Sequence record: NZ_CP143948.1
Length of the DNA stretch: 64,000 nt
Reading direction: 5' to 3' (one strand)
Source: a plasmid
Shown here piece by piece: positions 11,645 through 40,906 of the stretch (position 1 is its first letter; each line of letters opens with the position of its first letter). The translations under genes were made by a program, and so were the position numbers. The notes beneath the pieces were generated by a model. That model did no database searches. It was not told where the DNA came from and was given only the letters and a program-made list of their open reading frames with translations.

Positions 11645-11646
11645 GC

Positions 11647-24286: not shown

Positions 24287-24324
24287 GAGAACACCCCCTC
24301 CACAGATTTCGTTCCGCTATCATA

Positions 24325-24352
24325 AATTCAAATTTTCCAGCTCGACAAGCTG
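24325..24352 (-). promoter_or_regulatory. conserved 28-bp upstream motif, copy 2
   Basis: aattcaaattttccagctcgacaagctg. Confidence 0.55.
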
Positions 24353-24361
24353 AAATTTTTG

Positions 24362-24769
24362 TTATTCTACGATACCTTCAATATAGCTGTAATCAATATT
24401 TCCCTTTGTAACAGAATAGAAAAATGGATCTTTTCTAATTGTATCATCTGAATTGATAATAAAATTATTCCAATCGCCTGCCTCGTTGCCATCAGACAAA
24501 TAAATAGTAACTTTGAAACTATATCCCATATATCCCAAAGATAGCTTTGACCGCTTTACTTCGACGCCATTCAAATTTTCGACAATATGCTGAATCTGCT
24601 CTTTGTCGGTAATATGTGTTGCGTTTCCGCTATTGCCATTGAAAACAACTATTTCCATGACCTCATTAGGGTCTAAGTCCATCAAGTCGAGTGGAATATT
24701 AAACCATACAACAATGCCCATCAAAAGAATTATCACAACAGACAGCAATATGATGATTTTCTTTTTCAT
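24362..24769 (-). CDS. hypothetical membrane-anchored protein
   Basis: 135 aa. N-terminal TM segment (IIILLSVVIILLMGIVVWF) and a small extracytoplasmic domain. Confidence 0.5.
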   Translation of the reverse strand: MKKKIIILLSVVIILLMGIVVWFNIPLDLMDLDPNEVMEIVVFNGNSGNATHITDKEQIQHIVENLNGVEVKRSKLSLGYMGYSFKVTIYLSDGNEAGDWNNFIINSDDTIRKDPFFYSVTKGNIDYSYIEGIVE

Positions 24770-25048
24770 ATCAGCTCACCTCCTAGTCAACTTTCGATTG
24801 AACAAAATCGCTGCGCGATGGCCTGCCAAGGCTGTGGCGCAGTTTTATTTTTATTAAAAAGCAGTGGAATTACTTTCCATAATCCGTTATTGTTAAGTTA
24901 CCACACGAAACAACTGAACTAAGAAAGCTCCACTGCCTATGATAAGAATAACATTTTTCAGTCTCTTCCGCAATCGGAATTATGACGCTAATGCACCTCC
25001 GAATAGGTAGATATAATTATTAACACTACTTATTCTGGAGGTTTTATT

Positions 25049-25897: not shown

Positions 25898-27069
25898 GTA
25901 AGGATTGTACGATTCAGGATGTTTTTCATCGTTTTTATCCATCTTTTGAATCCACACATAGTATTTCTCCCGCTCAGCGAAAGGCCGCTTATCACATCAT
26001 GAATTGCAAAACCGGTGCCTTTGGTGTGAATGTAAGTGTATGCGAGGACTGCGGCTGCATATCAGTCCACTATAACTCCTGCCGTGACAGGTGCTGTCCT
26101 ATGTGTCAGGAGTTTCCAAAAGAAAAATGGGTAGATGCACGGCGGGAGGATATCTTAGATGCTCCTTATTTCCATGTGATTTTTACAGTTCCGGAAGAAC
26201 TCAATCCCATTATCTACAGCAACCAGAAATTCTTATACACTGCTCTTTATCATGCGGCTTCAGATACTCTCAGTGAACTTGCTGCTGATTGTAAATATCT
26301 TGGGACTGATATCGGCTATATTTGTATCCTCCATACATGGGGAAGTACCATGAATTTTCATCCTCATATCCATGCGATTGTTCTTGGTGGAGGGCTGGAT
26401 GTGAAAAATCATTGGAAAGACAATGGGAAAGATTTTTTCCTTCCGATTAAGGTAATCTCAAAAACGTTTCGTGGAAAATACATGGCTGAACTTAAGCAGC
26501 TCTGGGAAAATGACAGGCTTGAATTTCATGGATCGGCTGCACCTTACAAAAACCACTATACTTTCAAGGAATTGTTAAATACCTGCTATACAAAGGAATG
26601 GATTCCTTATTGCAAGAAACCATTTGACGGTGCCGAATCTGTCATCAGATACCTTGGAAAATACACCCACCGGATTGCTATCAGCAACTACCGTATCAAA
26701 GACATGACAGAATCTACAGTTACTTTTTCCGCTAAAGATTACAAAAACCAAGGGCTTTGGAAAGAGATCACCATATCCGGCGAGGAATTTATCCGTCGAT
26801 TTTTAATGCATGTTCCTCCAAAACGTTTTGTACGTATCAGGCACTATGGTCTTCTTTCATCCAGAAATAAGAAGAAAAAGATTACCCTATGCAGAAACAT
26901 CCTTGGTTGCAAAAAATATATTTCCAAGCTGAAAGATATGGATGCACCTGCCATTATCCGTCTTCTTTATAATAAAGATATATGCAAGTGCTCTTCCTGT
27001 GGTGGTAAGATTATTCCTCTGCCTACAGAACAACATTTTATAAAACCAAAACCACATATGCTCTGTTAA
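25894..27069 (+). CDS. IS91 family transposase (rolling-circle HUH/Y2)
   Basis: N-terminal Cys-rich zinc-binding region, HPHIHAIV HUH motif, tyrosine-containing RYLGKYTHRIAISNYR. Confidence 0.8.
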   Translation: MSKDCTIQDVFHRFYPSFESTHSISPAQRKAAYHIMNCKTGAFGVNVSVCEDCGCISVHYNSCRDRCCPMCQEFPKEKWVDARREDILDAPYFHVIFTVPEELNPIIYSNQKFLYTALYHAASDTLSELAADCKYLGTDIGYICILHTWGSTMNFHPHIHAIVLGGGLDVKNHWKDNGKDFFLPIKVISKTFRGKYMAELKQLWENDRLEFHGSAAPYKNHYTFKELLNTCYTKEWIPYCKKPFDGAESVIRYLGKYTHRIAISNYRIKDMTESTVTFSAKDYKNQGLWKEITISGEEFIRRFLMHVPPKRFVRIRHYGLLSSRNKKKKITLCRNILGCKKYISKLKDMDAPAIIRLLYNKDICKCSSCGGKIIPLPTEQHFIKPKPHMLC

Positions 27070-27336
27070 CGTATCATAACTGTATATTTTTTTTAGCTTC
27101 CTTAGGGAGGCTTATTTCTGGTGCCATAATACAGGACTGAATTATAAATTCTATGTATTTCTATGTGTACACGCTATCCTATTATAAATAGAGTGTCAGA
27201 ATTAAAAGTCCATATAGAGTTGACGCGCTTTGTTCAACCAGAAAAAATCGAAATTGATGCAAACGAGAGGGCAGTTAATGAAAAGTCTCAATACTGCTTT
27301 TTCGTTTGCACCACCTTCGATTCTTTCCTTAACGAT

Positions 27337-27549
27337 TTATCTATTTTCATAATCAATCAAAATCTTCTTACAACTACTACAACGATAAGCTTCACAATGA
27401 GGGATTCCTTCTGACCCTTTACTCAATTCCAGATCGTCCGATTTTTTAATACGAAAAGCTTTTATCGGATTATCAACTGCAAAAGTAATGTCTAGTGAAC
27501 TCATTAGGTATCCTCTTATCATTTCATCACCACAATATGGACATTTCAT
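27337..27549 (-). CDS. small zinc-ribbon protein
   Basis: 70 aa. CPYCG...CSSCKK metal-binding pairs. Confidence 0.45.
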   Translation of the reverse strand: MKCPYCGDEMIRGYLMSSLDITFAVDNPIKAFRIKKSDDLELSKGSEGIPHCEAYRCSSCKKILIDYENR

Positions 27550-27703
27550 GCAGATTCACCTCCTATAAATTCTGATTTATATAATTATCTCTCTAACTTT
27601 CCCCATTTTATAGGCTTTCCCGCCTGTCCATTAGTGAAATGATATGTAGTTTCCCTTATTTTTGCCCTTATGAGATAATCACAAGGGAAATAAGGGAAAT
27701 TTT

Positions 27704-29029
27704 TTAGTCATTGCCCACCACTTTATCAAGAAGCCGAACTGATTTTCGTTTCGCATCTCTTGTGGAGTGAGCATAGACGTTCATTGTGGTACTGACATCT
27801 GAGTGTCCCAACAATTCCTGCACATCTTTTGGGGCAGCTCCATTTGCTAAAAGGTTGCTTGTATAGGTGTGACGTAACTGGTGGAAATGAAAGCCTTCAA
27901 ATCCCTCTAATGTTTTTGCCACCTTTCTGCAAACAGTCCCCAAAGTAGTTGGAAGTTCCAAACAACCATCCGGTCTTAAACAGACGAAAGAAATTTCTTT
28001 ATAATCTGTCGGGACTTCCTCTGTTCTGTCTAAGCAATAATATTCGTAGTACACTCTGTTTTTCTCTTTGACCGCTTTGTAGTAGTTCGTGTGATAAAGT
28101 TCTCCGTACTGCATTCGATTTTTTAACTGCTCTTTCCGGGCATTACGGAAAATCTCTACCAGCGTATCTCCAAAATCAACAATCCTCACTTTTTTCCGCT
28201 TGGTTGGTCCGATGATATATTTGCGCTTTGAGCCATCGTATCGGATGCTGCGTCTTATGGTAAGGCATTGTTCTTCCAGATTTACGTCCTGCCACGCCAA
28301 ACCGCAGGCTTCTCCAATACGAAGCCCGGCATAATAGGCTATCTGGATTGGAAGTATTGCGGCTGGGTTCTTTTTTTGCAGATAAGCAAGCAGTCTTTCA
28401 TAATCTTCTCGTGAAATTGGTTGGACATTTCCGTCCATATCCTCATCGGAAAACAAATCCACTTCATCCGTCTGATACCGCAGTTTAATATACTGCATGG
28501 GATTGAACGTAATATACTGCTTTGGAAATACTGCAAAACGGAAGGACTGCTGCATGACTGCGGAAAAAGAATGGATATAATCTTTGCTGTAACCCTTTCT
28601 CTCTTTTCCGTCGGGATGAACTCCCCCGAAGGAAAGCAAATCGAAGAAGGATTGCAAATGTTCAGAGGTTACATTTTTCAGTTTCCGTTCTGCCAATGGG
28701 TGTTTCTTGATATTTCGGATTGTTCCGAGGTAATTCTCCACCGTACCATTGCTGAGCGTACCTGTTTTTAATTCCTCCTCTGCCCACACATCCAAAAGCT
28801 GTCCGACTGTGAGATTTTCCGCTTTGGCAACAAATTTCTTTTTCTCATAATCATCCATTGCCTGACGGAGCAGCTTTTCAGTTTCACTTTTGCTTTCTGT
28901 TCCAACGCATTCTTTCTGAACAAGATTGCCGCTTGCGTCCTCTACATAGAAGCGGTAGTACCATTTCTTTCCTTTTTTTCTTACAGATCCTTTTGCCATA
29001 ATCGTATGTCTCCTTTCGATATTAGACAA
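27704..29029 (-). CDS. int: site-specific tyrosine integrase (Tn916/ICE-type Int with N-terminal DNA-binding domain)
   Basis: 441 aa. C-terminal HQLRHTYTSNLLANGAAPKDVQELLGHSDVSTTMNVYAH catalytic region. Confidence 0.85.
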   Translation of the reverse strand: MSNIERRHTIMAKGSVRKKGKKWYYRFYVEDASGNLVQKECVGTESKSETEKLLRQAMDDYEKKKFVAKAENLTVGQLLDVWAEEELKTGTLSNGTVENYLGTIRNIKKHPLAERKLKNVTSEHLQSFFDLLSFGGVHPDGKERKGYSKDYIHSFSAVMQQSFRFAVFPKQYITFNPMQYIKLRYQTDEVDLFSDEDMDGNVQPISREDYERLLAYLQKKNPAAILPIQIAYYAGLRIGEACGLAWQDVNLEEQCLTIRRSIRYDGSKRKYIIGPTKRKKVRIVDFGDTLVEIFRNARKEQLKNRMQYGELYHTNYYKAVKEKNRVYYEYYCLDRTEEVPTDYKEISFVCLRPDGCLELPTTLGTVCRKVAKTLEGFEGFHFHQLRHTYTSNLLANGAAPKDVQELLGHSDVSTTMNVYAHSTRDAKRKSVRLLDKVVGND

Positions 29030-29085
29030 TCGGAACTGATGAAATGCTTCGTGCGTGTAAGTATATCATAACTCCGGTTGTCTTA

Positions 29086-29715
29086 CTATACCGATTCGGA
29101 ATCTTCGTATAAGACTTCTGATAAAAGATTTGCAAGCCTTTGTTCTGCTGTTTTTGGTTTCTTGGAATAGAGCCTTACAACGTCTGCCATCTCATTAAAA
29201 GCATTGATGGTGTGAGTGATTTCCCTTAAGAACATAATCTCATTATATTCCTCATTCGATTCAAACCCTATTGTTTTGGCAATATCCGTCTGACCAGCAT
29301 TTCCCTTGAAGTTTTTGCAGGCGAACTGGAAGGAATCCAAAAACAGACCATATTGTTTTAACATCAGCAGTAATAAATCTTTTGAAAAAGCATCTTCTTC
29401 TTTGGTAAGGGCAAGCGGTAACTGTTCCAGAATATCTCCCATCGCATCACGAATCTGTAATTCTCTCTTATCCGTAATGTCGGTTTCATATTCATCTGTT
29501 TCCCCTTTGAGCCATTCCACAGATACATGGAGTGCTTCCGAAAGACCTTCCAGCACCATTTTTTTCGTATTGTCAATCGAACCATTCTCATAACGCAGGA
29601 TTGTAGAAGCGGTAACTCCCATCTTCTCTGCGACATAAGGCTGTGTCAGATTCAATTCCAGACGGCGCTGTTTTATTCTGCTGCCTATCAGCTTGCGTAA
29701 TTCTTTATCTTTCAT
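29086..29715 (-). CDS. XRE-family HTH transcriptional regulator
   Basis: HTH LNLTQPYVAEKMGVTASTILRYENG. Start placed at MKDKELRK. The track ORF starts at 29802. Confidence 0.7.
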   Translation of the reverse strand: MKDKELRKLIGSRIKQRRLELNLTQPYVAEKMGVTASTILRYENGSIDNTKKMVLEGLSEALHVSVEWLKGETDEYETDITDKRELQIRDAMGDILEQLPLALTKEEDAFSKDLLLLMLKQYGLFLDSFQFACKNFKGNAGQTDIAKTIGFESNEEYNEIMFLREITHTINAFNEMADVVRLYSKKPKTAEQRLANLLSEVLYEDSESV

Positions 29716-29886
29716 GCTGACTGCCTCCTTTTTCGGTATGTATGAATTATAGCATTGTTTTTCCGAAATTGCAATATGCAATGCAATATTTATTTTTAAC
29801 ATTTCGTAACGCTTGACAAAAAGATGTGAAAAGGATATACTTACATCACAGGAATTGCATAATGCAATTTATAAGGAGGTGATTAT

Positions 29887-30117
29887 ATGACGCAAAGAAA
29901 AATTGCATTATCCATCGAAGAAGCTGCCGACTATACGGGAATCGGCAGAAACACCTTAAGACAGCTTGTAGAATGGAAGAAACTTCCGGTATTAAAGGTT
30001 GGTCGTAAAGTCCTGATTAAAACCGATATTCTGGAAATGTTTATGGAAGCGAATGAAGGTCGTGATTTGAGGGATAGAGGAAATGTAAAAGCCGTAACAA
30101 GAACTGCGGCAAATTAA
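29887..30117 (+). CDS. xis: excisionase/helix-turn-helix DNA-binding protein (Xis-like)
   Basis: 76 aa. IEEAADYTGIGRNTLRQLV HTH. AAGGAGGTG RBS. Confidence 0.65.
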   Translation: MTQRKIALSIEEAADYTGIGRNTLRQLVEWKKLPVLKVGRKVLIKTDILEMFMEANEGRDLRDRGNVKAVTRTAAN

Positions 30118-30257
30118 AAAGGCGGCTTCCCAAGAAACCGCCAAAGGTTCTATCAGACCGAAGCCATGATATACCTACACGCAAGAAGATTATACCATGT
30201 GCTTCTTCTGATACGCAACCAAGAACTTATGTTTGTGAAGGAAAGGAGAATGTAAGA

Positions 30258-30572
30258 ATGGCAAAATCAACAAAAAGTTATGAAGCACGAATGCTTGAAA
30301 TGGAAAAGAAAGAGCAGGAAAGCCTTGAAAAGGCGAAACGATATGCGGCACAGAAGAAAGAACTTCTGAAGCGAAAGAAAGCCGAAGAAAGTAAAAAACG
30401 AACCCATAGGCTCTGTCAGATTGGCGGTGCGGTGGAATCCGTTCTCGGTGCGCCTATTGAGGAAGAAGACATCCCAAAGCTGATTGGTTTTCTGAAAAGG
30501 CAGGAAGCCAACGGGAAATTTTTCTCAAAGGCAATGCAGAAAGAAGTCAATACCGATATGGAGGAAGTGTAA
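30258..30572 (+). CDS. DUF3847-like small charged protein, common upstream of Mob relaxases
   Basis: 104 aa, K/E-rich, positioned immediately upstream of the relaxase. Confidence 0.5.
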   Translation: MAKSTKSYEARMLEMEKKEQESLEKAKRYAAQKKELLKRKKAEESKKRTHRLCQIGGAVESVLGAPIEEEDIPKLIGFLKRQEANGKFFSKAMQKEVNTDMEEV

Positions 30573-30899
30573 TGGCGGAGGGGATGAGTTTTTCATTCCC
30601 TTCATTGCTTTTTCATGAAGGGCGCACTTATGGACAACCAGAGGTCGTCCCAATAAGTTTGCCACAAGTGGCAACCGGTCTGCGTTCACGCTTGCCGGGC
30701 TCGTTCCGTCGGCGGGGCTTTCAGCCAGACCTGCTCATGCCGCAGGAGGCACTCTTCGCCAGAGAGGCGCATTCCATGCAGGCTGCTATGCGCAGGGCAC
30801 TCTTACGCAGAGGGCGTTCCGGCAATGCTGCTTTTCCTAAAACCGAAAGCAATGTTGCCGGAAATCTATGCCGGATGTGCAGAAAGGAGGAATCCAGAC

Positions 30900-32621
30900 A
30901 TGGCGATTTTTCATTACACAGTCAAAATAGTCGGACGAAGTAAAGGGAAATCTGTTATCTCCGCTTCCGCATATCTCAATGGGGATGTGATGAAAAACGA
31001 GGAAACCGGGAGAATCAGTTATTACACTTCTAAAAAAGAAATGGTCTACACTCGGCTGATGATGTGTGAAAACGCACCTCCTGAATGGCAGATAGTACCA
31101 GAAGAAAATATAAAACGCTTTCAAAAATCTGTCCGATACAAAAGATCAGAAGATAAAGAAGCTGCTTTAGAAAAATTTAAAATCACATTTCAGAAACAAA
31201 GGTTATGGAATGAGGTATTGAAGATTGAAAAAAATGCAGATGCCCAACTTGGCAGGTCATTTGAATTTGCCCTTCCCAAAGAATGGAACAGACAGGAACA
31301 AATTCAATATACAACTGACTATATTCAAAAAACTTTTGTAGATAGAGGAATGTGTGCTGATTGGAGTATCCACGATAAAGGGGATGGCAACCCCCATGTC
31401 CATCTGCTTCTGACTATGCGTCCTTTTAACCCGGATCATTCTTGGGGAAAGAAAGAAGTCAAGGATTGGGATTTTCTCAGAGATAAAAACGGAAATATCG
31501 TGATTGATGAATCCCATCCGAACTGGTGGCAGGATAAGAAAAACCCTGACCGTCATGGAATCCGTATCCCTGTATTAGACGAAAACGGAATTCAGAAGAT
31601 GGGTGCAAGAAACCGCCTGCAATGGAAACGGGTGCTGACCGATGCTAACGGATGGAACAATCCAAAAAATTGTGAACTGTGGCGGAGTGAATGGGCAAAG
31701 GTGTGTAATGAACATCTTCCTTTGCATAATCAGGTCGATCACCGTTCTTATGAAAAACAGGGAAAACTCCAGATTCCTACCATCCATGAAGGCGCTGACG
31801 CAAGAAAGATTGAACAAAAGTTTCTTGCCGGGCAGGAAATAAAAGGTTCGTGGAAAGTAGCGGAAAATCAAATCATAAAACAACAAAACACGTTATTGCA
31901 AAAGATACTGGACACCTTTGGAAAAGTATCGGGTGCATTATCATTATGGAAGGAGCGATTAAATGACATTAGAAGAAAGCCGGGAAATTATACCCTTAAT
32001 GGAATCCATGATTGGGCAAATCGAAGAACAGCAGACCTTAATGGCAGAAATGATTCTGGAAATGCAGAACCGGGACACCCAACTCTCTCTTATGCAGGAA
32101 CAGAATCAGAAATTGCAAAAATTAAACAGCGAGTTATCCGAGCTGCTCAACATTTTGCCAAATACCGAGGAACTGCTTTCCAAGATGGAAGAACAGAAAA
32201 CGAAGATAGAACTTTTGGAAAACGAAAATCAGCAATGGCAGAAATTGGTACAGAAACTGAACAGCGAAAACAGTTTATTACTGAAACAGAACACCGAATT
32301 GCTGAACTGGAACAGCAGATAGAGAAAGGACGTGATATAGATGAACGAATCCAGAGAATCAAAGAACGCCGAACAGTTGGAAGAACTTCTCCTCTTGACC
32401 GAGGAGATACAAGAAGAACTGGAACAGAAAGACCAGCTTATCGTGGAACTGAAGACGCAGCTCAACGAATCTCTGACCTTGAACGAGAAATTAAACAAAG
32501 AGAACAGAGCCGGGAATATTCAATCATTAAAGAACGACTTGAAGATGGCAGACAGAGCATTGCGGATCGAGAAAGAAAAGCTGCGAAGCGCAAACGTCAC
32601 TATAGAGGATTGTCAAGATAA
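30900..32621 (+). CDS. MobA/MobL-family relaxase (MOBQ); the 3' part is questionable and may be frameshifted
   Basis: Start at MAIFHYTVKIV with an AAGGAGG RBS. A catalytic Tyr-containing N-terminus and an HVHLLLTMRPF His motif. After ~31960 the frame-0 translation becomes G/R/T-rich low complexity while frame +1 carries RBS-preceded ORFs. Confidence 0.6.
   Translation: MAIFHYTVKIVGRSKGKSVISASAYLNGDVMKNEETGRISYYTSKKEMVYTRLMMCENAPPEWQIVPEENIKRFQKSVRYKRSEDKEAALEKFKITFQKQRLWNEVLKIEKNADAQLGRSFEFALPKEWNRQEQIQYTTDYIQKTFVDRGMCADWSIHDKGDGNPHVHLLLTMRPFNPDHSWGKKEVKDWDFLRDKNGNIVIDESHPNWWQDKKNPDRHGIRIPVLDENGIQKMGARNRLQWKRVLTDANGWNNPKNCELWRSEWAKVCNEHLPLHNQVDHRSYEKQGKLQIPTIHEGADARKIEQKFLAGQEIKGSWKVAENQIIKQQNTLLQKILDTFGKVSGALSLWKERLNDIRRKPGNYTLNGIHDWANRRTADLNGRNDSGNAEPGHPTLSYAGTESEIAKIKQRVIRAAQHFAKYRGTAFQDGRTENEDRTFGKRKSAMAEIGTETEQRKQFITETEHRIAELEQQIEKGRDIDERIQRIKERRTVGRTSPLDRGDTRRTGTERPAYRGTEDAAQRISDLEREIKQREQSREYSIIKERLEDGRQSIADRERKAAKRKRHYRGLSR
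31963..32322 (+). CDS. coiled-coil protein, possibly the displaced C-terminal segment of the relaxase
   Basis: GGAAGGAG RBS 7 nt upstream. Heptad-rich LxxLxxL sequence. Confidence 0.4.
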   Translation: MTLEESREIIPLMESMIGQIEEQQTLMAEMILEMQNRDTQLSLMQEQNQKLQKLNSELSELLNILPNTEELLSKMEEQKTKIELLENENQQWQKLVQKLNSENSLLLKQNTELLNWNSR

Positions 32622-33306
32622 AATACGCTGCTTAACACAGGAACGGGATTATGCCCGGACACATCAGAAAATCGTAGAGATACCGGTGGAAAAGCCGGTA
32701 CTCTATGAAAAATGTGAAGCCTGTGACCGGGCAGCCTATCAGAATGCAAAAACGAAATACGAAACACAAAAAGAGCGACTTGCCGGACAGTATAAAGCAA
32801 AAACGGTAATGTTCCAAACAACCTTGTTTCTTCTTGCATGGTATTCGCTGATATCCACTCTTTTTCAGGCAATACAGTCAGATGTGCTCCTTTCCGATTG
32901 TAAATCATTCTTCAATGATTTAGCATCATTCATACAAACCTTTGTCGGATGGACGATTGATGCCGGGCATTCTGCGGCACAGATTAGTACAAAAATTCCA
33001 AATGCTTTTATAGCCGGAATGGTATATTGGTTATTGCTAATATTGATTGTAGGAATATGTATGGCAGGAACAGGGATGCTGGCGATACTGATAGAAATAA
33101 AGGTTATAGAATTATATAAGAAAAACTGTTGGGATGTTATTACTCTACTAATGATACTGACAAGTGTTGCTATTGTCATTTATTTTGGAGAATCAATCAA
33201 AAAAGTACTGTCAGTAAATCTTCTATTGCTTTTCGTACTTTCGCAGGGCGCATATGTTGGAATTAGATGTTATCTTAAAGTTTGGTTAGAAAAAAGACCA
33301 TATTAG
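32341..33306 (+). CDS. hypothetical protein with an N-terminal coiled coil and four C-terminal TM helices
   Basis: 321 aa. The C-terminal hydrophobic segments argue that the ORF is real. Confidence 0.5.
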   Translation: MNESRESKNAEQLEELLLLTEEIQEELEQKDQLIVELKTQLNESLTLNEKLNKENRAGNIQSLKNDLKMADRALRIEKEKLRSANVTIEDCQDKIRCLTQERDYARTHQKIVEIPVEKPVLYEKCEACDRAAYQNAKTKYETQKERLAGQYKAKTVMFQTTLFLLAWYSLISTLFQAIQSDVLLSDCKSFFNDLASFIQTFVGWTIDAGHSAAQISTKIPNAFIAGMVYWLLLILIVGICMAGTGMLAILIEIKVIELYKKNCWDVITLLMILTSVAIVIYFGESIKKVLSVNLLLLFVLSQGAYVGIRCYLKVWLEKRPY

Positions 33307-33501
33307 TATTTTCAACTTACTGTATAGACAGTAAAATTACTCCATACCAGCCTAGTGAAAATTTACTGTATGAAAAGAAGTATTACAGAGAAAAAAGGCT
33401 GTAAAAACAGGAACAGCCAGCCCGAAAGAATTTACGGACTGGCTGTATCAGCAGAGTAATGTAATTGTGGAGCTGACCGAGATATGAAAAGCTTTCTATC
33501 A

Positions 33502-35838
33502 TCAATTTCGCATTATTGCAATAACAGATTGCTTCTTCCATGAATGAATAAGCAATATTGTCATCAAACTTTCAAGCATAAACATAGCAACAGCAAAAAG
33601 AGTAAAAGCAACAACCGGAAATACAAATCCCGTAGACATGCCTGCATTTTTCAAAAATATACCGATTGCATATCCGCCGGGGATTCCAACAACAGCAGTT
33701 ATAAGCAATGCAATCAAAGTAGTAAAAAGACCTTCCATCATAAATGCTTGCTTCAACTGCTTATTTGTCATACCAATAGATTTTAGTGTGCCCATTTCCT
33801 GTTTGTGTGATAAAAGATTTGTCACAGTAAGATTGATTTGATTGATGACCGCAAATATCCACAAGATGGCTGCAATCGCATAAGCTAATGTAAAACCTGC
33901 ACGATTGTCTGATTGGTGTTCTACAATAAAATCTTGAAGGGTTTGTAAGCGAACATCCCTATTGTCAGAAACGAGTAATTTGAGTTCTTGCTCGATTATC
34001 TCCTGATATTCAGCTTCTGCTTGTATTTCGATTGCGTATGTACAGTCATAACCTGCAAGTTCTTTGAGCATATTTTCCGGCATTCTGAAAATATAGCCAC
34101 CCATTCCATCATTGCTGGAAGTGATTGCACCAATTTTGAATGCTTTTGTTATTGTTTTACCACTATGATTTTTGAAATTAAAGGTCACAGTATCCCCAAT
34201 TTGAGGTTTCCAATGGTAAACATCATAAATACGTTCGGGATCACTTACAACTAATTCTGTATCATCAGTAATATTTCCAGATAAAACCGCTGCATTTAGC
34301 GACGCCAAATCCTTTTCATTATAGCCGAGCATCAAGGTGCTATCTGAAATATCATTGTCTGTTGAAAAATCAACTGGTACGGTAGCATAAGTAAATATAT
34401 TGCTAACTCCCTCTATATCTCCAACACGCTTTACATAATCAGAAAAATATTCTTTCTGCAAGAGAGCATCCAAATTTTCACTTTCGTTTTCTAAATCAAT
34501 GCTGATTTTGAAATCTCCGTACTTCATATCCCAATAACGAGCCATACTCTCGGCATTAAAAGAACTCTGATAACTTGCTGCAAGGAAAAATATAACTCCG
34601 CACAGTCCCAATGATAAAATGGTCAATAGAGATTTTTTTCTGTTTCTGGAAAAGCTGATTTTCGCTAAATATACAGGCGTAATACGATGTCTTTTGTGAG
34701 TGCGGTAATTTACAATTCCCACTGGATTTTTCAGGGCGGAAATTGGAGAAGTATTCGCTGCAATTTTTGCTGGTTTACGAACACTAATATAAACAAGCAG
34801 TATTCCAAAAAGGCATGCGCCACATAGAGAAACAATAAATGCAAATACTGACCAGCCTTTTGATTGCAGACAATAGCTGATGATCGTTCCCATGATACTA
34901 CCAATTAAAATCCCCGGAACTGCAAGCATATAACCCTGTTTAAGAACTATTTTATAAATTTGCTTTTTACTTGCCCCTATTGTCCGAAGCTGTCCGAACT
35001 CAGCAACTTTTTGTCCAACCGAAATATAGAAAATGCTGTAAATTACAAGTGCGGCAGCTAAAAACAAAATGGCAGCAACTACACCATATACCGCATAATT
35101 ACTGAAGGACAAAGTTGTATTTACATAATCATAGTAACTGCTGACTGTCCAATTATTCAGTCCAGTCTCCTCTGAAATTTGAGATAATATTTCTGTTGCT
35201 TCGTCTTTTGTAAGGGTATCTGCATTTTCAAGCCAAACATATCCATTAAGCAGGTTATTTCCACGTAATTCCCGGCATTTTTCAAGTGAAACAAAAACAG
35301 GATAAGCGGTAGAAGTTTTATCATGATAAATACCAACAATAGTATAATTCTTCAAAGTACCATCCAGATTCAACTGAACTATGGCGTTGATTTCCGGAGA
35401 CTTATTTTCACTGGCAAAAAAGGCATCTGTAACAGCAATTTCACTTGCTTTCTCTGGATATTTTCCGTCAAAGGCAGGAATCAAACTAAGCATGTCATCA
35501 TCATAATAAATCAGAGACAGTTCTTTAGAATTTTCTTTCACTGTTTTGATATTACAGGAAAGTCCTACACTTTTTACTTCTTCGTTTGCTAACAACTTTT
35601 CTTTACTGTCCTGCGTAATGTCAAAGAAAATCCCTTGATGTAATCCTTCGATTTCTTTCTGATTTTGATAAATGATATTTTGCACTGTGAGCAACGACAT
35701 CATTATCATAGCAACGGCTACAATAATTGCCGAAAGGCAAAATAAGTTTTTCTTCTTATCAAAACGCACACTTTTTCGTGCTAATTTTTTAATTACTGCA
35801 CTGGTATCATTTTCAAAAGGATAATTCATAATTCCCAC
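33502..35838 (-). CDS. ABC transporter permease, FtsX/MacB-type (two FtsX domains)
   Basis: 778 aa with multiple TM segments and a large extracytoplasmic domain. Coupled to the upstream ATPase. Confidence 0.75.
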   Translation of the reverse strand: MGIMNYPFENDTSAVIKKLARKSVRFDKKKNLFCLSAIIVAVAMIMMSLLTVQNIIYQNQKEIEGLHQGIFFDITQDSKEKLLANEEVKSVGLSCNIKTVKENSKELSLIYYDDDMLSLIPAFDGKYPEKASEIAVTDAFFASENKSPEINAIVQLNLDGTLKNYTIVGIYHDKTSTAYPVFVSLEKCRELRGNNLLNGYVWLENADTLTKDEATEILSQISEETGLNNWTVSSYYDYVNTTLSFSNYAVYGVVAAILFLAAALVIYSIFYISVGQKVAEFGQLRTIGASKKQIYKIVLKQGYMLAVPGILIGSIMGTIISYCLQSKGWSVFAFIVSLCGACLFGILLVYISVRKPAKIAANTSPISALKNPVGIVNYRTHKRHRITPVYLAKISFSRNRKKSLLTILSLGLCGVIFFLAASYQSSFNAESMARYWDMKYGDFKISIDLENESENLDALLQKEYFSDYVKRVGDIEGVSNIFTYATVPVDFSTDNDISDSTLMLGYNEKDLASLNAAVLSGNITDDTELVVSDPERIYDVYHWKPQIGDTVTFNFKNHSGKTITKAFKIGAITSSNDGMGGYIFRMPENMLKELAGYDCTYAIEIQAEAEYQEIIEQELKLLVSDNRDVRLQTLQDFIVEHQSDNRAGFTLAYAIAAILWIFAVINQINLTVTNLLSHKQEMGTLKSIGMTNKQLKQAFMMEGLFTTLIALLITAVVGIPGGYAIGIFLKNAGMSTGFVFPVVAFTLFAVAMFMLESLMTILLIHSWKKQSVIAIMRN

Positions 35839-35843
35839 CTCCT

Positions 35844-36515
35844 TTAGCCAACAATTTTACCATCTTCAATCCGTACAATGCGGTCTGCGAGTTGAGCGAT
35901 CTCGTTGTTGTGAGTAATCATTACAATGGTCTGATTAAATTCTCCGCTGGTATGCTTCAAAAGCCCTAACACATCTGCACTGGTCTTGCTATCAAGATTT
36001 CCGGTCGGTTCATCAGCAAGGATAATCGCAGGCTTCGTAATTAAAGCTCGTGCAATCGCTACACGTTGCTGTTGACCGCCTGAAAGATTGTTCGGCATAT
36101 TTTCCAGTTTATCTTCTAAAGCCAACATATACACAACTTCGTCCATAAATTTCTGGTCTACTGTATCGCCATCCAGTTCCACAGGCAGGACGATATTTTC
36201 ATATACATTCAAAATCGGAACCAGATTATAATTTTGGAAGATAAATCCGATGTTACGACGGCGGAAAATTGTCAATTCATCATCATTCTTTTTTGCGAGT
36301 TCTTCTCCCCGTACAATCACGCTGCCGGAAGTGGGGGTATCAAGTCCTCCCATCATGTGAAGCAATGTAGACTTACCGCTGCCGGAAGTTCCAACTACGG
36401 CAACAAATTCTCCCTGTTCCACAGTAAAATTTACACCATTAAGGGCACGAGTAATATTTGGTTCTGTGCCGTAATACTTCTTTAAGTCGATTGTTTGTAA
36501 AATGCTCATATTCAA
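35844..36515 (-). CDS. ABC transporter ATP-binding protein (MacB/LolD/BceA-like)
   Basis: Walker [10 protein letters not shown], signature [15 protein letters not shown], Walker [12 protein letters not shown]. Confidence 0.85.
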
Positions 36516-36575
36516 ATGCTCCTTTCAAGGCTTTCTATCTGTTGATAAAGCCATTGTAAACCACAAATGTTACAC

Positions 36576-36646
36576 AAATGTCCGAGATAGAAAAAATTTT
36601 TATCGAAAATCAGAGTGAAATGTTACAACGCTCGGACATTTCAAAA
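36576..36646. promoter_or_regulatory. two inverted copies of the AAATGTCCGAG / TGTTACA motif in the HK-ABC intergenic region
   Basis: aaatgttacacAAATGTCCGAG at 36566-36586 and aaatgttacaacgCTCGGACATTT at 36618-36641. A third copy is upstream of the RR gene. Confidence 0.5.
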
Positions 36647-36660
36647 AAAGTGGTTATATC

Positions 36661-37692
36661 TTACCTTACAGGAAGCATAATAGAAAATTCTGAGCCTTGC
36701 CTCAGCTCTGAAACGACCTTGATATAGCCCCCTTGCCTTGTTACAATCTCACGAGCCAAATACAAACCTATTCCCACACCCTGTTGATCGTGTACTTCTT
36801 CCTCACGATAGAAGCGCCGGAAGATGGCAGCCTGATTGCTTTCTGAAATGCCCTTGCCGGTGTCGGTCACTTTGACCTCTACGTACATTTCCCACTGAAC
36901 CACTGATACAGAAATCTTTCCACCTGACGGAGTGTATTTTACTGCATTGTCCAGCAGATTGAAAAGGGCTTCGCTTGTCCACTTGCTGTCATGGGAGATT
37001 ATCAAATTTTCCGGGCAATCCACGGATACAGCAATTTCTTTTTTCTCTGCGGCATATACAATACTGCTCATGGCTTGTGCAAGCGTATGGAATAAGCTGC
37101 TGTCTTTCTTTTCTAATCGTATTGCTCCGGTTTCCAACCGGGACGTTTTAACCAGTGCTTGGAACAGAAAATCCAGTTTATCAGTCTGACTGCGTATGCC
37201 TTGTAAAAAGTCCATCCGTTCTTCTTCTGAAACAGGCTTTGTTAAAAGTGTGTCCGTTACCATTTGCAAATTGCTGACAGGCGTTTTAACTTGATGTGAA
37301 ATATCAGAAATCAGCATTTGAAGCTCCTGTCGTTCCATGTCTACCTTGTGCCGGTTTTTCTGCATAATCTCATACAACCGAATTAAGCGGTGGTTGATAC
37401 GGGCAAAAAGAGTTTCACTATCATTTGACTTTTGTAATTCCTCGTTTCCATCAATCATGTTGTCCAGCGTCCGGCACAAATTAGAAGTAAAATGAGAAAG
37501 GCGTTTTCCAAAAATCAGCACCAATAGCCAAATCCAGAAAAACGCACAGAGTGTCAATGTTCCACCCACTATAAAAATTCGTATATCCTGCATTATACCG
37601 CCGAAAATACCGGTAATTACCAGCATAGAGAAAACCATGCCAGCACTAACCAGTCTACAAATTTTCTTAGCAGAAAGGTTATTCAGATTCAT
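36661..37692 (-). CDS. intramembrane-sensing histidine kinase (BceS/VraS-like)
   Basis: Two N-terminal TM helices with a very short loop, H-box MLISDISHQVKTP, and HATPase (GVGIGLYLAREI). Start placed at MNLNN, overlapping the RR stop (ATGA). Confidence 0.75.
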   Translation of the reverse strand: MNLNNLSAKKICRLVSAGMVFSMLVITGIFGGIMQDIRIFIVGGTLTLCAFFWIWLLVLIFGKRLSHFTSNLCRTLDNMIDGNEELQKSNDSETLFARINHRLIRLYEIMQKNRHKVDMERQELQMLISDISHQVKTPVSNLQMVTDTLLTKPVSEEERMDFLQGIRSQTDKLDFLFQALVKTSRLETGAIRLEKKDSSLFHTLAQAMSSIVYAAEKKEIAVSVDCPENLIISHDSKWTSEALFNLLDNAVKYTPSGGKISVSVVQWEMYVEVKVTDTGKGISESNQAAIFRRFYREEEVHDQQGVGIGLYLAREIVTRQGGYIKVVSELRQGSEFSIMLPVR

Positions 37693-38378
37693 TTCTTTTC
37701 GCCTCCTGTCCATTGATACCCCATACCATAAACCGTTTTGATATATGTGTCGCCATCCGCTTCAATCTTACTGCGAATACGGCTGATAGAAGTAGTAAGG
37801 GTATGTTCATCTACATATTTTTCATCAACATCCCACAGTTTTTCTAAAAATTGTTGGCGAGTAAGTACCTGCTTCGGATTTTTAAGAAATAGGTTCAACA
37901 TTTTATATTCCATCGCAGAAAGTGCTAATGGTTTCCCGTTCAAACTTGCAAATTGTTCCGAAAAATCCAGAAACAAGCTACCATCCTCGTAAATATCCTT
38001 AGCTGGTTTGTGATGCTCCAACATAGCGAACATGGCTTTGATTTTTCGCTGCAAAGCACTAATCGAAAAAGGTTTCGTGATATAATCCACTGCACCAGCT
38101 TCATATCCCCGTATCTGATTGCTTTCCTGATCGTTGGCAGTTAGAAATATAACTACTGTATCAGGATGCTCTGGCTTGATAAGACGGCATAGGTCATAAC
38201 CATTTCCGTCTGGTAAATTTATATCCAGCAATACCAAATCAAAAATGTTTGTTTTTAATGATTCAGCGGCTGTCCTTGCATTCAGAACAGAAGTTATTGT
38301 GTAACCGTCCAATTCCAAATTATAAGTAAGCGTTTTATTCAAAAGATTATCATCTTCGACAATTAAAATATGCTTCAT
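37689..38378 (-). CDS. OmpR/BceR-family response regulator
   Basis: MKHILIVEDD...LLDINLPDGNG receiver domain and a winged-helix output domain (YIKTVYGMGYQW). AAGGAAG RBS. Confidence 0.8.
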   Translation of the reverse strand: MKHILIVEDDNLLNKTLTYNLELDGYTITSVLNARTAAESLKTNIFDLVLLDINLPDGNGYDLCRLIKPEHPDTVVIFLTANDQESNQIRGYEAGAVDYITKPFSISALQRKIKAMFAMLEHHKPAKDIYEDGSLFLDFSEQFASLNGKPLALSAMEYKMLNLFLKNPKQVLTRQQFLEKLWDVDEKYVDEHTLTTSISRIRSKIEADGDTYIKTVYGMGYQWTGGEKK

Positions 38379-38418
38379 ATTATCACTTCCTTTTCTTTTT
38401 GCAGATAGTATAACAGGC

Positions 38419-38429
38419 AAATGTCCGAG
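38419..38429. promoter_or_regulatory. third copy of the AAATGTCCGAG motif, upstream of the response-regulator gene
   Basis: caggcAAATGTCCGAGaattgttacaagg. Confidence 0.45.
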
Positions 38430-38627
38430 AATTGTTACAAGGACAAATATATTTTTCATTTTACAGCTTTTTTCTGTGTACTGCAATTTTATAAAAGAAA
38501 GGACAGCAGTGTCAAATTGCTGTCCTTTCTTTTATCATAGCTGGTAGTGTAGAAGCGTGGGTTCATCATATCGGGTGTGGTATCTTTAACTACAGGAAAC
38601 TCCCTACAACACTATCTCACTTCTTGC

Positions 38628-38867
38628 TTAATAAAGTTCTAATGAATCTTCTGTATCCACCCACATCTGTAAATTGCCATCAAGATATAATCTTGCATAT
38701 TCCAAAGGCTCATCCACAGCCAATGAAGTAAGCGCACATTCTGATCCATATGTGGTTTTTAAATTTTTTTCAGCTTCCCAGCAATCAATGCGAAGCATAT
38801 ATCCAGCACTTGTGTAAACATCAATACTATCGTGGTTTATATTATATTCTGCATAAATTGTTCTCAT
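38628..38867 (-). CDS. hypothetical protein (79 aa) at the right edge of the element
   Basis: ORF followed by a bidirectional terminator at 38498-38537. Confidence 0.35.
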   Translation of the reverse strand: MRTIYAEYNINHDSIDVYTSAGYMLRIDCWEAEKNLKTTYGSECALTSLAVDEPLEYARLYLDGNLQMWVDTEDSLELY

Positions 38868-39192
38868 CGTATCTTATCTCCATTTTCTTTTGATAATCAG
38901 TTACAGAGTTAAATATCGAAAACATTTCAATCAGTTCACCATGTCGTTATTGTTATATGTTATATTGTGTTATGAAATTTTCTTTCCCTTAATTTTTCCC
39001 ATATTAAGGTTCATGAAAAGCAATGGGAAAATGTAACACAAGGGAAAGAGTAAGGGAAAGTTCACTTGCTACAAACTTAGTATTTTCAAGGGTTTGCGAA
39101 GAATTTGATAATCAAATATAACAGTTATTAAATTTCCTAAAATATGTGAAATATCAATTATAATTTGATAAGCTCCTCTAAGAGATTATGTT

Positions 39193-39543
39193 TCAATTTT
39201 CTTCTATGTATTTCACTACTCTATCTATATTTCCGCTTTCATATTCATCATGTGTTAATTTGAAACACTCATCCTTACTAACACTGCTGTAGTCTATATA
39301 CCTAGCAATATCTTCTGGAATTAAAAACAAGTTTACTCCTTCTCGTTTCAGCGATTGTAAATCTCCGTGATTGACATCAACAATTACTTCCGCTTCCCAA
39401 TTTTTTGCTTTAATTGCAGACTGTAAATTTTCTTTTAATACAGTACTTCTCTTTTTTTTAAAAATATTAAAATGTCCATCATGTCCAACCTGTGAATTTC
39501 TCCCATTAGTTACATAGGGTACAATGGCTATTTTTTTTATCAT
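39193..39543 (-). CDS. hypothetical protein (116 aa)
   Basis: AAAGGAGGA RBS 8 nt before ATG 39543. Starts MIKKIAIVPYVTNGRNSQVGHDGHF. No confident family assignment. Confidence 0.4.
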   Translation of the reverse strand: MIKKIAIVPYVTNGRNSQVGHDGHFNIFKKKRSTVLKENLQSAIKAKNWEAEVIVDVNHGDLQSLKREGVNLFLIPEDIARYIDYSSVSKDECFKLTHDEYESGNIDRVVKYIEEN

Positions 39544-39624
39544 TAACTTGTCCTCCTTTTCCACTTCTTATAACTTCTAATTTTACTTAAACTTTTTTCA
39601 CCTTAAAAAACTGGGATTTTCGCA

Positions 39625-40005
39625 TTATTTCTGTTGTGCCTTAACAAAAATGCTCTCTGTTACAAGGGCTATCGTTATAAGGGCTCCTACAAGGGAGTAA
39701 TTGTTTAATCCATACATCAACGGCATAAGAGAAATAACTGCTGTAATAATCGAAAGAACAAACAAGGCGTTAAAAACGCTATCTTTCTTCAAAGAAATCA
39801 ACGAAAGCAACAAAATAACAACAGTAAGTATGGCTGTAATAAGTGGAGCAAAATTTGCATATCCAAACGGTATAAGACTAAAGTATGAAAATGTTTCTCT
39901 TACTCTTTCTGTTGGAGATGGAGCAAAAGTACAAACTGCTCCCAGTGGTAATGCTTCTAACACTATTGTTAAAGCCGGAAAAACCACTAAGCTGATTTTT
40001 TTCAT
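39625..40005 (-). CDS. hypothetical small integral membrane protein
   Basis: 126 aa with 3-4 hydrophobic segments. Confidence 0.45.
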   Translation of the reverse strand: MKKISLVVFPALTIVLEALPLGAVCTFAPSPTERVRETFSYFSLIPFGYANFAPLITAILTVVILLLSLISLKKDSVFNALFVLSIITAVISLMPLMYGLNNYSLVGALITIALVTESIFVKAQQK

Positions 40006-40054
40006 GTTGTGTACCTCCGTCTACAAATCGTGGTTTGTTGATGCAAAACTATTA

Positions 40055-40210
40055 AGACTTATCTTCGTTATTATCGCTCTTAAATAAACCGATAATAACA
40101 ACAATCAGACCTAAAACACCACCTCCAAACGCAATGATATTATCTATGGATAGAGCAATTGCCGCAAGAATGATTGCTATACCCAATAACATTATTTTTG
40201 TTCCCATTCA
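40055..40210 (-). CDS. unannotated 51-aa membrane peptide
   Basis: MGTKIMLLGIAIILAAIALSIDNIIAFGGGVLGLIVVIIGLFKSDNNEDKS. Strong AAGGAGG RBS. Below the track's 60-aa cut-off. Confidence 0.45.
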
Positions 40211-40309
40211 TTCCGCCTCCTTCCTATTTGGTGCTTCATCTGCTCCAGACAAAACACCATTATGGCAAAAGTTAGCAATAAAAACATCATTCATAGTGCA
40301 TCCCTCTAA

Positions 40310-40906
40310 ATGCTCCTTCTTCAATACAACTCCCAGTTTCTTTCACTTCTTGATGAAGCCATTAACCTTGATGAAATTGTTCCTGTTTCTTTTGTTACTC
40401 ATTTCCACGCTTCAACCGGAATACCTCGAAAGCACCAGCTTTATCCGATGCTCAAGGCACTTCTACTCCAGCGTATTTTTTTCAATCCCGACAGATACGC
40501 TCCTGCTTGCGTTCCTAGAGTACTCTCAGGAACTTCGTGATTTCTGCGACTTTGATGCTGTTCCAGATGGTTCCAAATTTACACGTTTTAAACAGGACTT
40601 CTTGTTGGATTTACGATCTTCGAAGACATTGGATTTCGTAATGCTTTTATTCCTCTCCGTGCCTATCCTGGCATAGAACGTGGCTCGAAATAATGGGAAG
40701 ATACTTACAAGATCCGTGTAAATGTTGAAAATTCAATCAACCATTTCAAAGATAGTTGCAGCATTGCGAATCGTAAGACCCAGAATGAGAAAACGCTTCA
40801 TGCTGATTTACTTCTTGCCGGAATCACCCAGCTTGTTACTGTAATTGTCGCTGATAAGATTCATCAGTACCAATACATTCGGAGTTTGAAGCCCTTGATT
40901 GCCTGA
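40310..40906 (+). pseudogene. decayed DDE transposase remnant (IS4/IS1182-like; N-terminal DUF772-like fragment and C-terminal fragment, internally deleted or frameshifted)
   Basis: Fragments TGIPRKHQLYPMLKALLLQRIFFNPDR and LLLAFLEYSQELRDFCDFDAVPDGSKFTRFKQDF (other frames). A C-terminal block NVENSINHFKDSCSIANRKTQNEKTLHADLLLAGITQLVTVIVADKIHQYQYIRSLKPLIA ends at 40906. Confidence 0.5.

Follow-up and report, generated by a model that had tools for sequence, protein, structure and literature searches.

Ends, junction core and exchangeable cargo slot of an integrative mobilizable element of the MOBQ2/DUF3847 type

What was inserted at this locus, where exactly does it begin and end, and what does it carry? 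The locus lies in a 64,000-nucleotide stretch of sequence record NZ_CP143948.1 (the window, by which we mean the whole stretch that was analysed). A preliminary description, made from the sequence alone, had drawn a mobile element here at 27651-39060, bounded by hairpin-like repeats taken as its attachment (att) core and carrying an integrase, a relaxase and a cargo of the BceRS/BceAB peptide-resistance type. We compared the window with related loci (designated by L numbers) and with an unoccupied version of the insertion site, and we conclude, with a probability of roughly 0.85, that window positions 27579-39166 are a single integrative mobilizable element (IME) of 11,588 bp, belonging to the MOBQ2/DUF3847 type and lying within the decayed remains of an older mobile element in the chromosome.

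The limits of the element were read from locus L017, where an uninterrupted version of the window's insertion site is present (...CCTATA-AATTCTG-ATTT-GATAAG...), about 4.5 kb from L017's own copy of the IME. In the window, the inserted DNA is bounded by an 11-bp imperfect repeat, AATTCTGATTT on the left and AATTATAATTT on the right (family consensus AACTnnnATTT), and in-silico removal of 27579-39166 leaves a sequence that matches the empty site of L017 at 299/300. Removal of 27651-39060 gives a match of only 139/300. The empty-site comparison that had been proposed as a check thus confirms a discrete inserted element, at 27579-39166; the interval first drawn does not reconstitute the site, and its boundaries fail for that reason.

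Independent insertions place the ends at the same nucleotides. The exact 431-amino acid (aa) integrase occurs on six other contigs, and on these the identity runs through the left of the two proposed repeats and continues for 72 bp beyond it. Past this integrase-side end the contigs have four different flanks, with divergence always setting in at the same nucleotide (the left-end comparison took in L003, L005, L006, L007, and L018-L076). The opposite end lies beside a gene for a DUF6061 protein. Here, the ten places shown have ten different neighbourhoods, two of them in one genome, and homology starts at the same nucleotide in 10/10 contexts, 96 bp outside the right repeat (to 39155). Both ends were available for 33 copies, and the flanks were of 40 different sequences on the left and 56 on the right; more than 40 distinct flanks with identical break points amount to more than 40 independent insertion sites.

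Could the element nevertheless be 27651-39060, with the hairpin-like repeats as its att core and BceRS/BceAB as its cargo? The repeats are real, share one orientation at the two ends, and are unusual by statistical measures; the cargo gene order (response regulator, small kinase with two transmembrane [TM] helices, ATPase, and FtsX permease) does resemble that of Bce modules. However, independent insertions have a further 72 bp and 96 bp in common outside the repeats, the removal experiment in silico gives the poor match stated above, and the window permease has no BceB/PsdB sequence match, while a sister cargo has one, and is predicted to have two external domains and 8 TM helices. We regard that version of the element as very improbable, and take 27579-39166 as the inserted DNA in what follows.

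The paired copies (n = 33) also reveal the structure of the junction. Their general form is flank-AACTnnnATTT/ATATAATTATC...GTGAAATATC/AACTnnnATTT-flank, with the slashes marking the shared break points. Target choice is loose, and the targets have only a weak consensus, AATTCnACA-AACTGGA-ATTT-GT. Core positions 1-4 of the left and right junctions of a copy differ in 0/33 cases, positions 5-7 differ in 4-6 copies each, and positions 9-11 are always TTT beside the element's left end and variable beside the right flank. The two cores of one copy are unlike at positions 5-8 in 13/33, for which mutation after insertion is a possible cause. We suggest that strand exchange would require identity between element and target at the first four core positions (AACT), and that the next three or four positions would form the strand-exchange overlap and tolerate mismatches. 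Such tolerance may be the reason that the two junctions of one copy often differ.

The window copy is a variant of this pattern. Both of its junctions begin with AATT, its left 11-mer equals the empty-site 11-mer, and its right core (AATTATA-ATTT) is neither the empty-site core nor the usual family core. Among ~70 junctions, an AATT core is found elsewhere only in L093 and L094, which are identical in junction and flank. An incoming circle with an AATT-type core would explain the window junctions, as far as we can infer from a single case.

If the ends mark a mobile unit, the machinery that they enclose marks it as a mobilizable one. A relaxase with a PF03389 domain stands next to a gene with a PF12958 (DUF3847) domain, the combination that characterises the MOBQ2/DUF3847 type. 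The DUF3847 protein scores 34.5 bits, below the Pfam gathering score of 40, and the same gene is listed as PF12958 in related contigs. We corrected the start of the relaxase gene to ATG 30900, and a protein of the resulting 573 aa is also found in related contigs. At its N-terminus (MAIFHY...AAAY25), the relaxase appears similar to RSF1010 MobA, in which Tyr25 is the catalytic residue. PMC12084326 describes the DUF3847 protein as a relaxase-associated accessory typical of MOBQ2 IMEs.

The 330-bp stretch between the DUF3847 and relaxase genes, upstream of the relaxase, contains an origin of transfer (oriT). An inverted repeat, GGGACGACC-TCT-GGTTGTCC, is followed by the nick-region core ATAAGTGCGCCCTT on the minus strand (30618-30631), a 14-mer that is unique in the window and has 0 expected occurrences. 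This core is an exact match to the MOBQ oriT consensus NWACCNNTAAGTGCGCCCTYNN (PMC3832669), and it fits the Gram-positive oriT consensus NcgtNtaAgtGCGCcCTta (PMC10333310). The relaxase is predicted to nick at ATAAGTGCGCC/CTT. From oriT onward, a GC-rich non-coding block of ~200 nt is ultraconserved, being ~100% identical to L071 in a backbone that is otherwise 78% identical, and the minus strand of 30573-30899 folds well as single-stranded DNA (z = -3.5). The block may serve as a relaxosome platform or as a single-strand initiation signal, or it may be a patch left by recent recombination. We rejected a 123-aa open reading frame (ORF; 30572-30943) as a gene: it has no Pfam or NCBIfam match and is probably spurious, since it overlaps oriT and the ultraconserved block.

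No gene for a type IV secretion system (T4SS) or coupling protein (VirB4, VirD4, or FtsK-type) was found among the ORFs of the element, all of which are accounted for, or among the ORFs scanned elsewhere in the 64-kb window. Because it has no mating-pore or coupling-protein gene, the element is mobilizable and not conjugative, and the domain scans of the element and of the rest of the window bear out what had been proposed on this point. From what is known of the family, the MOBQ relaxase (30900-32621), aided by the DUF3847 protein, would nick oriT at 30618-30651 after excision, and the single strand would leave the cell through a mating pore supplied by a conjugative element in the same host. 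The locus shows the sequence-level properties of an IME, i.e., its own integration and excision module, its own relaxase and oriT, no complete set of mating-pore or coupling-protein genes, and discrete ends with presence/absence polymorphism and a reconstitutable empty site.

How widely has the element moved? Searched with the DUF6040 protein, a product of the element's backbone, the species-representative genomes gave 77 loci. Full-length copies that are 98-99% identical are present in at least 11 species representatives, and these hosts include members of Roseburia, Blautia, Bovifimicola, and Anaerosacchariphilus (Lachnospiraceae), Intestinimonas (other Clostridia), and Faecalibacillus (Erysipelotrichia). 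In the assembly collection, 27,015 blocks are indexed as containing the exact DUF6061 protein. By these comparisons mobility is strongly supported, and the horizontal spread across families and classes appears to be recent. The insertion sites, the empty site, and the near-identical copies across families and classes agree with the initial proposal of an integrative mobilizable element with integrase/Xis and relaxase. No full copy was found in PLSDB plasmids, where the matches were a remnant in a Lachnospira eligens megaplasmid and a partial match in Subdoligranulum (78% identical over element positions 8992-11005, which cover the regulator-kinase part and DUF6061). Damaged copies occur as well: L020 (8201-16817) has lost element positions 101-3042, from the integrase to the excisionase (Xis); L021 (Intestinimonas; 3498-16817) has a 1.74-kb insertion in the relaxase gene; and L043 and L050 have internal duplications of the left part.

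Several observations weigh against our interpretation. First, the window copy has an atypical core, with AATT in place of AACT and with two mismatched positions between its left and right cores, so that poor excision of this copy is possible. Second, the junction expected of an excised circle (GTGAAATATC + 11 nt + ATATAATTAT) had 0 matches in two assembled-metagenome scans, run with no positive control, and in one scan of a viral-contig collection that holds only two copies of the element end. This null result counts weakly, and is uninformative because an excised circle is rare and transient. Third, there is no helper conjugative element in the 64-kb window. Fourth, a Pfam scan found no arm-binding domain in the N-terminal 78 residues of the integrase. 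Finally, the nearest solved structure to the transporter, YbbAP, handles hydrophobic membrane compounds and not peptides, and no homologue of the transporter is informatively named.

The first and third of these points raise the possibility that the window copy is stranded, i.e., an IME by descent that has lost excision and transfer through a poor secondary site and want of a helper. It has AATTCTGATTT and AATTATAATTT in place of AACTnnnATTT, AATT is rare among the ~70 junctions, a T4SS is absent from the window, and copies elsewhere (L020 and L021) have decayed. Yet the backbone genes of the window copy are all intact, the element is 98-99% identical to copies in other species, differences between left and right cores are common in apparently active copies (13/33), and a helper could sit elsewhere in the genome. 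We consider a stranded copy quite unlikely.

If the hairpin-like repeats are not the ends, what are they? The sequences first quoted are present at 27651-27699 and 38984-39060, and both sites are made of inverted copies of AAGGGAAA or close variants, of which the left site has four and the right site five. The AAGGGAAA octamer occurs 15 times in the window versus 3.3 expected, a count reached in no shuffle, and 6/15 copies fall within the two sites. Hairpin potential is high in both clusters (z = -5.9, left; z = -3.0, right). The repeats are thus real and non-random, and they are neither the element ends nor the att core: the left cluster lies 72-121 bp and the right cluster 96-172 bp inside the respective end. 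In relatives that are 71-79% identical (L071, and the ends in L019, L060, L069, and L070), the motif copies are kept while the loop and spacer sequence diverges; the left-cluster motifs are invariant in L071 and L001, and within the window element itself the two loops are 12 and 40 nt long. L001, the Lachnospira eligens megaplasmid (NC_012780), retains at ~14990-15125 a 116-bp remnant, 90% identical to the left end of the element, that holds the whole AAGGGAAA cluster and the last integrase codons and nothing else of the related element.

We suggest that the AAGGGAAA clusters are most likely accessory, putative arm-type sites for recombination proteins. Int and/or Xis would assemble the recombination complex on these inverted clusters near both ends. 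As no arm-binding domain is recognised by Pfam in the integrase N-terminus, Xis or the XRE protein stays a candidate binder. The same lack would also suit another explanation, in which the clusters are operators for XRE or Xis, or structural hairpins that act as a terminator after int or as single-strand signals after transfer; hairpin folding is possible at both clusters, and the left one directly follows the int stop codon. However, the right cluster lies 5' of DUF6061, which is transcribed away from it, and, since it is not 3' of any gene, a shared terminator role is unlikely. A T-tract is absent after either hairpin, and motifs that are kept while loops vary in length and sequence are better explained by protein binding than by one set fold of RNA or DNA. 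Repeated subterminal sites in both arms are, moreover, the classic arrangement of lambda- and Tn916-type integrases. We judge operators or structural hairpins to be somewhat unlikely, and prefer arm-type sites.

A related, distinct family of elements ends a few kb from some copies (L019, 18911-19492; L060, 17623-18141; L070, 19575-20103; L069, 1326-1838). Its ends have 71-79% identity; the termini are GTGAAATCTC/ATGAAATCTC, and the core is AATCGGAATTT or AATTCAAGTTT. From this proximity, related elements seem to collect at shared sites.

Pfam and NCBIfam confirm the identities first given to the integrase, XRE regulator, Xis, DUF3847 protein, MobA/MobL relaxase, OmpR-type regulator, kinase, ATPase, and FtsX permease, with gene starts corrected. 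The integrase starts at ATG 28999. We rejected a start at TTG 29029: an exact-protein look-up found the resulting 441-aa version on no contig. Its best solved relative is Tn1549 Int (6emy, E 3e-12), a distant one. The start of the XRE gene was corrected to 29715, and the Xis gene is divergent from it; a promoter scan found a promoter-like TTGACA-17-TATACT in the spacer at 29813-29841. A 32-nt repeat, ACCGnAGnnATGATATACnTACACGCAnGAAG, occurs 5' of int and again 5' of the DUF3847-relaxase operon, with both copies in the same orientation relative to the downstream gene. This placement suggests a candidate promoter or operator common to the recombination and mobilization genes.

Which part of the element is cargo? 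Comparison of the element with the 77 loci by blastn showed that backbone homology to sister elements ends at ~33273-33298, shortly ahead of the stop codon of DUF6040, and returns at ~38604-38638, at that of DUF6061. Sisters hold other modules in this slot (we inspected their cargo regions at about locus positions 10900-17000). L046 has a regulator, a kinase, and a true BceAB-type transporter; L033 has a regulator, an ABC-2 transporter, and a kinase; L051 has a DUF1430 permease and an ATPase; L063 has a regulator, a kinase, and an 886-aa MacB-type permease; and L035 has a regulator, a HAMP kinase, and an Ig-like protein (Big_14). L040 and L043 carry genes without a family match. Because the same slot holds different modules in sisters, the designation "cargo" is confirmed, and domain matches together with this slot exchange uphold the four-gene cargo of two-component system and ATP-binding cassette (ABC) transporter that had been proposed for the window. 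The slot, by its gene content, shows a bias toward sensor-regulated envelope transporters. At its left limit, the DNA that separates DUF6040 from the stop codon of the permease gene (33307-33501) contains a 27-nt direct repeat (33314-33340 and 33360-33386) and a GC-rich hairpin (~33415-33447), which may be relevant to cassette exchange.

The permease is the part of the cargo that departs from the Bce type. Hydropathy gives 8 TM helices, with external loops of ~185 and ~220 aa after TM1 and TM5, and the two halves are collinear on alignment. An AlphaFold2 (AF2) model from a 40-sequence alignment (predicted local distance difference test [pLDDT], 79.7) has the same plan, TM1-domain-TM2-4 twice, with two external domains. 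Its top solved fold is E. coli YbbP (9ge6/9ge7; E 5e-25; TM-score, 0.55-0.59 over the full length). BceB ranks below YbbP and then MacB, at E 1e-13 to 1e-14 and a TM-score of 0.31-0.36; the other fold matches are Spr0695, LolC/E, YtrF, and HrtB. YbbP and BceB both have 10 TM helices, and YbbP has two periplasmic domains where BceB has one, between TM7 and TM8 (PMC12646458). In sequence, the window permease matches LolF, MacB, YtrF, LolC/E, and HrtB-type proteins and finds no BceB or PsdB even at E<=10; as a positive control, the L046 permease matched BceB (7tcg_A) at 2.9e-12 and PsdB at 9e-10. Many of the homologues carry PF12704 (MacB_PCD), and none has an informative name.

Hence, in neither topology nor relatedness to BceB/PsdB is the window permease of the Bce type, and the label "BceAB-like" that it had been given does not hold. 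With an FtsX four-helix unit, a MacB-like external domain, and a MacB-group ATPase, the transporter belongs to the type VII ABC group. The ATPase is not diagnostic, as it matches MJ0796, LolD, MacB, PsdA, and BceA in the PDB alike (E about 1e-50 to 1e-53), and no cargo protein receives an NCBIfam equivalog-level name, all matches lying below the cut-offs. The sensory half does have Bce-type features. The kinase has two N-terminal TM helices (~21-40 and 46-69) joined by a link of ~5 residues, by hydropathy an intramembrane-sensing topology, and is paired with an OmpR-type regulator; BceS (8g3a_D) aligns to its residues 46-343 at 1.8e-15, and generic kinase cores score higher. The most fitting description of the cargo is a type VII ABC module that is under two-component control and of non-Bce subtype.

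The cargo is nonetheless predicted, by analogy, to work plausibly like a Bce module, in which case the kinase would probably read transporter activity, as BceS does; a putative role in envelope-stress or peptide sensing and detoxification is plausible. Another possibility is that it does not serve against antimicrobial peptides, and instead handles some other substrate that is hydrophobic or lies in the membrane (such as bile acids, lipids, or heme) or contributes to envelope homeostasis. YbbP, the closest solved fold, is a proposed extractor of hydrophobic compounds from the membrane (PMC12646458), further relatives are LolCDE, YtrEF, and HrtBA, and no homologue bears a functional name. Against this, several modules in the slot of sister elements come from known peptide- or bacteriocin-resistance families (BceAB-type, ABC-2 with a two-component system, and DUF1430), and peptide-sensing modules are typified by the pairing of an intramembrane-sensing kinase and a type VII transporter, a link established in Bce systems alone. 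A non-peptide role is thus possible, and we lean against it in favour of peptide or envelope-stress detoxification.

Two features of the cargo bear on its expression. A promoter scan found a promoter-like TTGACA-18-TAAAAT (11/12) at 38515-38486, before the regulator gene. The spacer between the kinase and ATPase genes has the tandem direct repeat ACATTTGTG-TA-ACATTTGTG, with 11-bp phasing, immediately 5' of a TACAAT hexamer; an inverted repeat, ATGTCCGAG/CTCGGACAT, surrounds it. We propose the tandem repeat as a candidate binding site for the OmpR-type regulator, on sequence grounds.

Taken together, the backbone might be a dedicated and extremely prevalent human-gut shuttle for interchangeable envelope-defence cassettes, with a fixed DUF6040/DUF6061 slot. 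The window cassette, an intramembrane-sensing two-component system with an 8-TM tandem MacB/YbbP-like permease, might then represent a distinct, unstudied class of flux-sensing resistance, parallel to Bce and not derived from it, and the integrase would use a split core of four homology positions and three or four that tolerate heterology. As a joint proposition this is speculative, and we think it rather unlikely in full. If it were true, the element could retarget by carrying a changed core, as the AATT variant hints.

The element is one of the commoner mobile DNAs in human gut Firmicutes. With its exact ends, core, oriT, and slot limits defined, it can readily be recognised and masked when genomes and metagenomes are annotated, and one can ask which defence cassettes circulate in the gut. 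A rule that names each cluster of regulator, kinase, ATPase, and FtsX genes "BceAB/bacitracin resistance" would give a wrong annotation in this case.

The rest of the window consists of ordinary chromosomal DNA that includes genes for Mfd, pyruvate formate-lyase, an enzyme of the 5-enolpyruvylshikimate-3-phosphate (EPSP)-synthase family (MurA or AroA), RsmH, and sugar transporters. The IME is nested in an older decayed mobile element (window 23272-24799 and 39152-40338; L017 1-6904). In L017, the same small ORFs (126 aa, 116 aa, DUF6487, 135 aa, and 315 aa) follow an integrase, AAA_25, a Mob_Pre relaxase, and TnpV; the window instead has a DUF772 transposase fragment (40134-40676), with an IS605-type TnpB (43200-44360) nearby. 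A unit of the insertion sequence (IS) family IS91 is inserted at 24800-27332 relative to L017, with a Phage_integrase gene (25049-25897) and a Y2_Tnp/Zn_Tnp_IS91 transposase gene (25894-27069). A strong hairpin (27241-27327) lies near the right end of this insertion. The Rfam match "mir-548" in 27000-40000 is this hairpin and was rejected as spurious; the other Rfam matches are at chance level only. The features of the element are listed in Table 1.

Table 1. Features of the element at 27579-39166 and of its junctions, in window coordinates
Feature	Position	Strand	Evidence
Left junction core (attL), AATTCTG-ATTT	27568..27578		L017 empty site; family junctions AACTnnnATTT
Left, integrase-proximal terminal segment, begins ATATAATTATCTC, holds left motif cluster	27579..27703		Homology end in independent insertions
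Left subterminal cluster, four AAGGG(A/C)AA motifs (putative arm-type sites)	27650..27699	two per strand	Enrichment, fold, conservation
Tyrosine integrase, 431 aa	27704..28999	-	Pfam Phage_integrase 4e-26; exact protein on six other contigs
32-nt repeat, copy 1, ~47 nt 5' of int	29047..29078	-	Inverted repeat, 84% complementary; kept in L071
XRE-family helix-turn-helix regulator, 209 aa	29086..29715	-	Pfam HTH_3 1.7e-12; 209 aa in all related contigs
Excisionase (Xis), 76 aa	29887..30117	+	Pfam HTH_17 2e-12, Tn916-Xis; TIGR01764 51.7 bits, above cut-off
32-nt repeat, copy 2, ~70 nt 5' of DUF3847-relaxase operon	30157..30188	+	Inverted-repeat search; L071
DUF3847 protein, 104 aa, relaxase-associated accessory	30258..30572	+	Pfam PF12958 2e-8
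oriT, inverted repeat and nick-region core	30618..30651	-	Consensus match
Ultraconserved non-coding block from oriT onward	30618..30821		~100% identical to L071
MOBQ relaxase, 573 aa	30900..32621	+	Pfam MobA_MobL 5.5e-75; NCBIfam MobQ 7.9e-49
DUF6040 protein, ~241 aa, coiled-coil N-terminus, C-terminal TM helices, last conserved backbone gene	32581..33306	+	Pfam PF19506 7e-107; TM prediction
Exchangeable cargo slot	33307..38627		blastn of element against 77 loci
Tandem MacB-type (type VII ABC) permease, 775 aa, TM1-external domain-TM2-4 twice	33502..35829	-	Two FtsX domains; hydropathy; AF2
ABC ATPase, 221 aa, MacB/LolD/BceA group	35844..36509	-	Pfam ABC_tran 4e-36
Tandem direct repeat, candidate regulator box	36562..36581	-	Sequence reading
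Histidine kinase, 343 aa	36661..37692	-	Pfam HisKA, HATPase_c
OmpR/PhoB-type response regulator, 229 aa	37689..38378	-	Pfam Response_reg, Trans_reg_C
DUF6061 protein, 79 aa, integrase-distal backbone gene	38628..38867	-	Pfam PF19537 5e-12
Right subterminal cluster, five (A/T)(A/T)GGGAAA motifs (putative arm-type sites)	38983..39059	two minus, three plus	Enrichment, fold, conservation
Right terminal segment, end ...ATATGTGAAATATC	39060..39155		Homology start in at least 10 contexts
Right junction core (attR), AATTATA-ATTT	39156..39166		Empty site and family junctions

The class to which the element belongs is already known, the window element is one more ordinary member of it, and nothing here overturns the current understanding of IMEs. 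A literature search, made without sequence-level catalogues, found no publication that names this element. MOBQ2 IMEs with DUF3847, non-specific integration, and peptide-efflux cargo have been described in Faecalibacterium and Roseburia (PMC12084326). Those IMEs share with the window element a PF03389 relaxase beside a PF12958 gene, a tyrosine integrase, and the absence of a T4SS; their ABC transporters are thought to export antimicrobial peptides, and near-identical copies occur in Oscillospiraceae and Lachnospiraceae. The window element differs in having no PF14198 (TnpV), which the same text reports in 16/24 MOBQ2 IMEs, and the 11-bp core, the arm-site clusters, the oriT, and the DUF6040/DUF6061 slot of the window family were not found in the available portion of PMC12084326.

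The C. difficile elements Tn6104 and Tn6115 (PMC3158075) are likewise small and non-conjugative, carry mobA/mobL and accessory genes for two-component systems and ABC transporters, and are often nested. Unlike the window element, with its tyrosine integrase, Xis, and 11-bp core, they use large serine recombinases and 2-bp targets. We also considered IME_Rho_tet (PMC12904643) as the family, and its serine recombinase rules this out.

The cargo resembles BceRS-BceAB and PsdRS-AB in combining an OmpR-type regulator, a MacB-group ATPase, and an FtsX-type permease with a small kinase that has two TM helices and no sensor domain, and all are type VII ABC systems. In contrast to Bce and Psd permeases, with one external domain and 10 helices, the window permease has two such domains and 8 predicted TM helices. 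In this respect it is like E. coli YbbAP (9GE6/9GE7; PMC12646458), in which a single polypeptide mimics the MacB dimer and has two MacB-like external domains. YbbP, however, differs in its 10 TM helices, of which TM5-6 form a linker pair, and in its partner, the periplasmic esterase TesA; the window permease is predicted to have 8 TM helices and a cytoplasmic linker, and appears to lack such a pair. The window permease also has a two-component partner and a Gram-positive host, and is only 12% identical to YbbP.

The recombination system recalls integrases of the Tn916/Tn1549 and CTnDOT/NBU types, which share with it the use of many sites and Xis; the match to Tn1549 Int lies mainly in the catalytic C-terminus (E 3e-12). 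The central junction positions that differ within 13/33 copies here would fit a limited tolerance of heterology. The coupling sequences of Tn916 and Tn1549 and the overlap of CTnDOT tolerate mismatches, and the core of the window family, as proposed above, is reminiscent of these. It is far more constrained than Tn916 coupling sequences, because only three to four of its positions vary and four are always identical.

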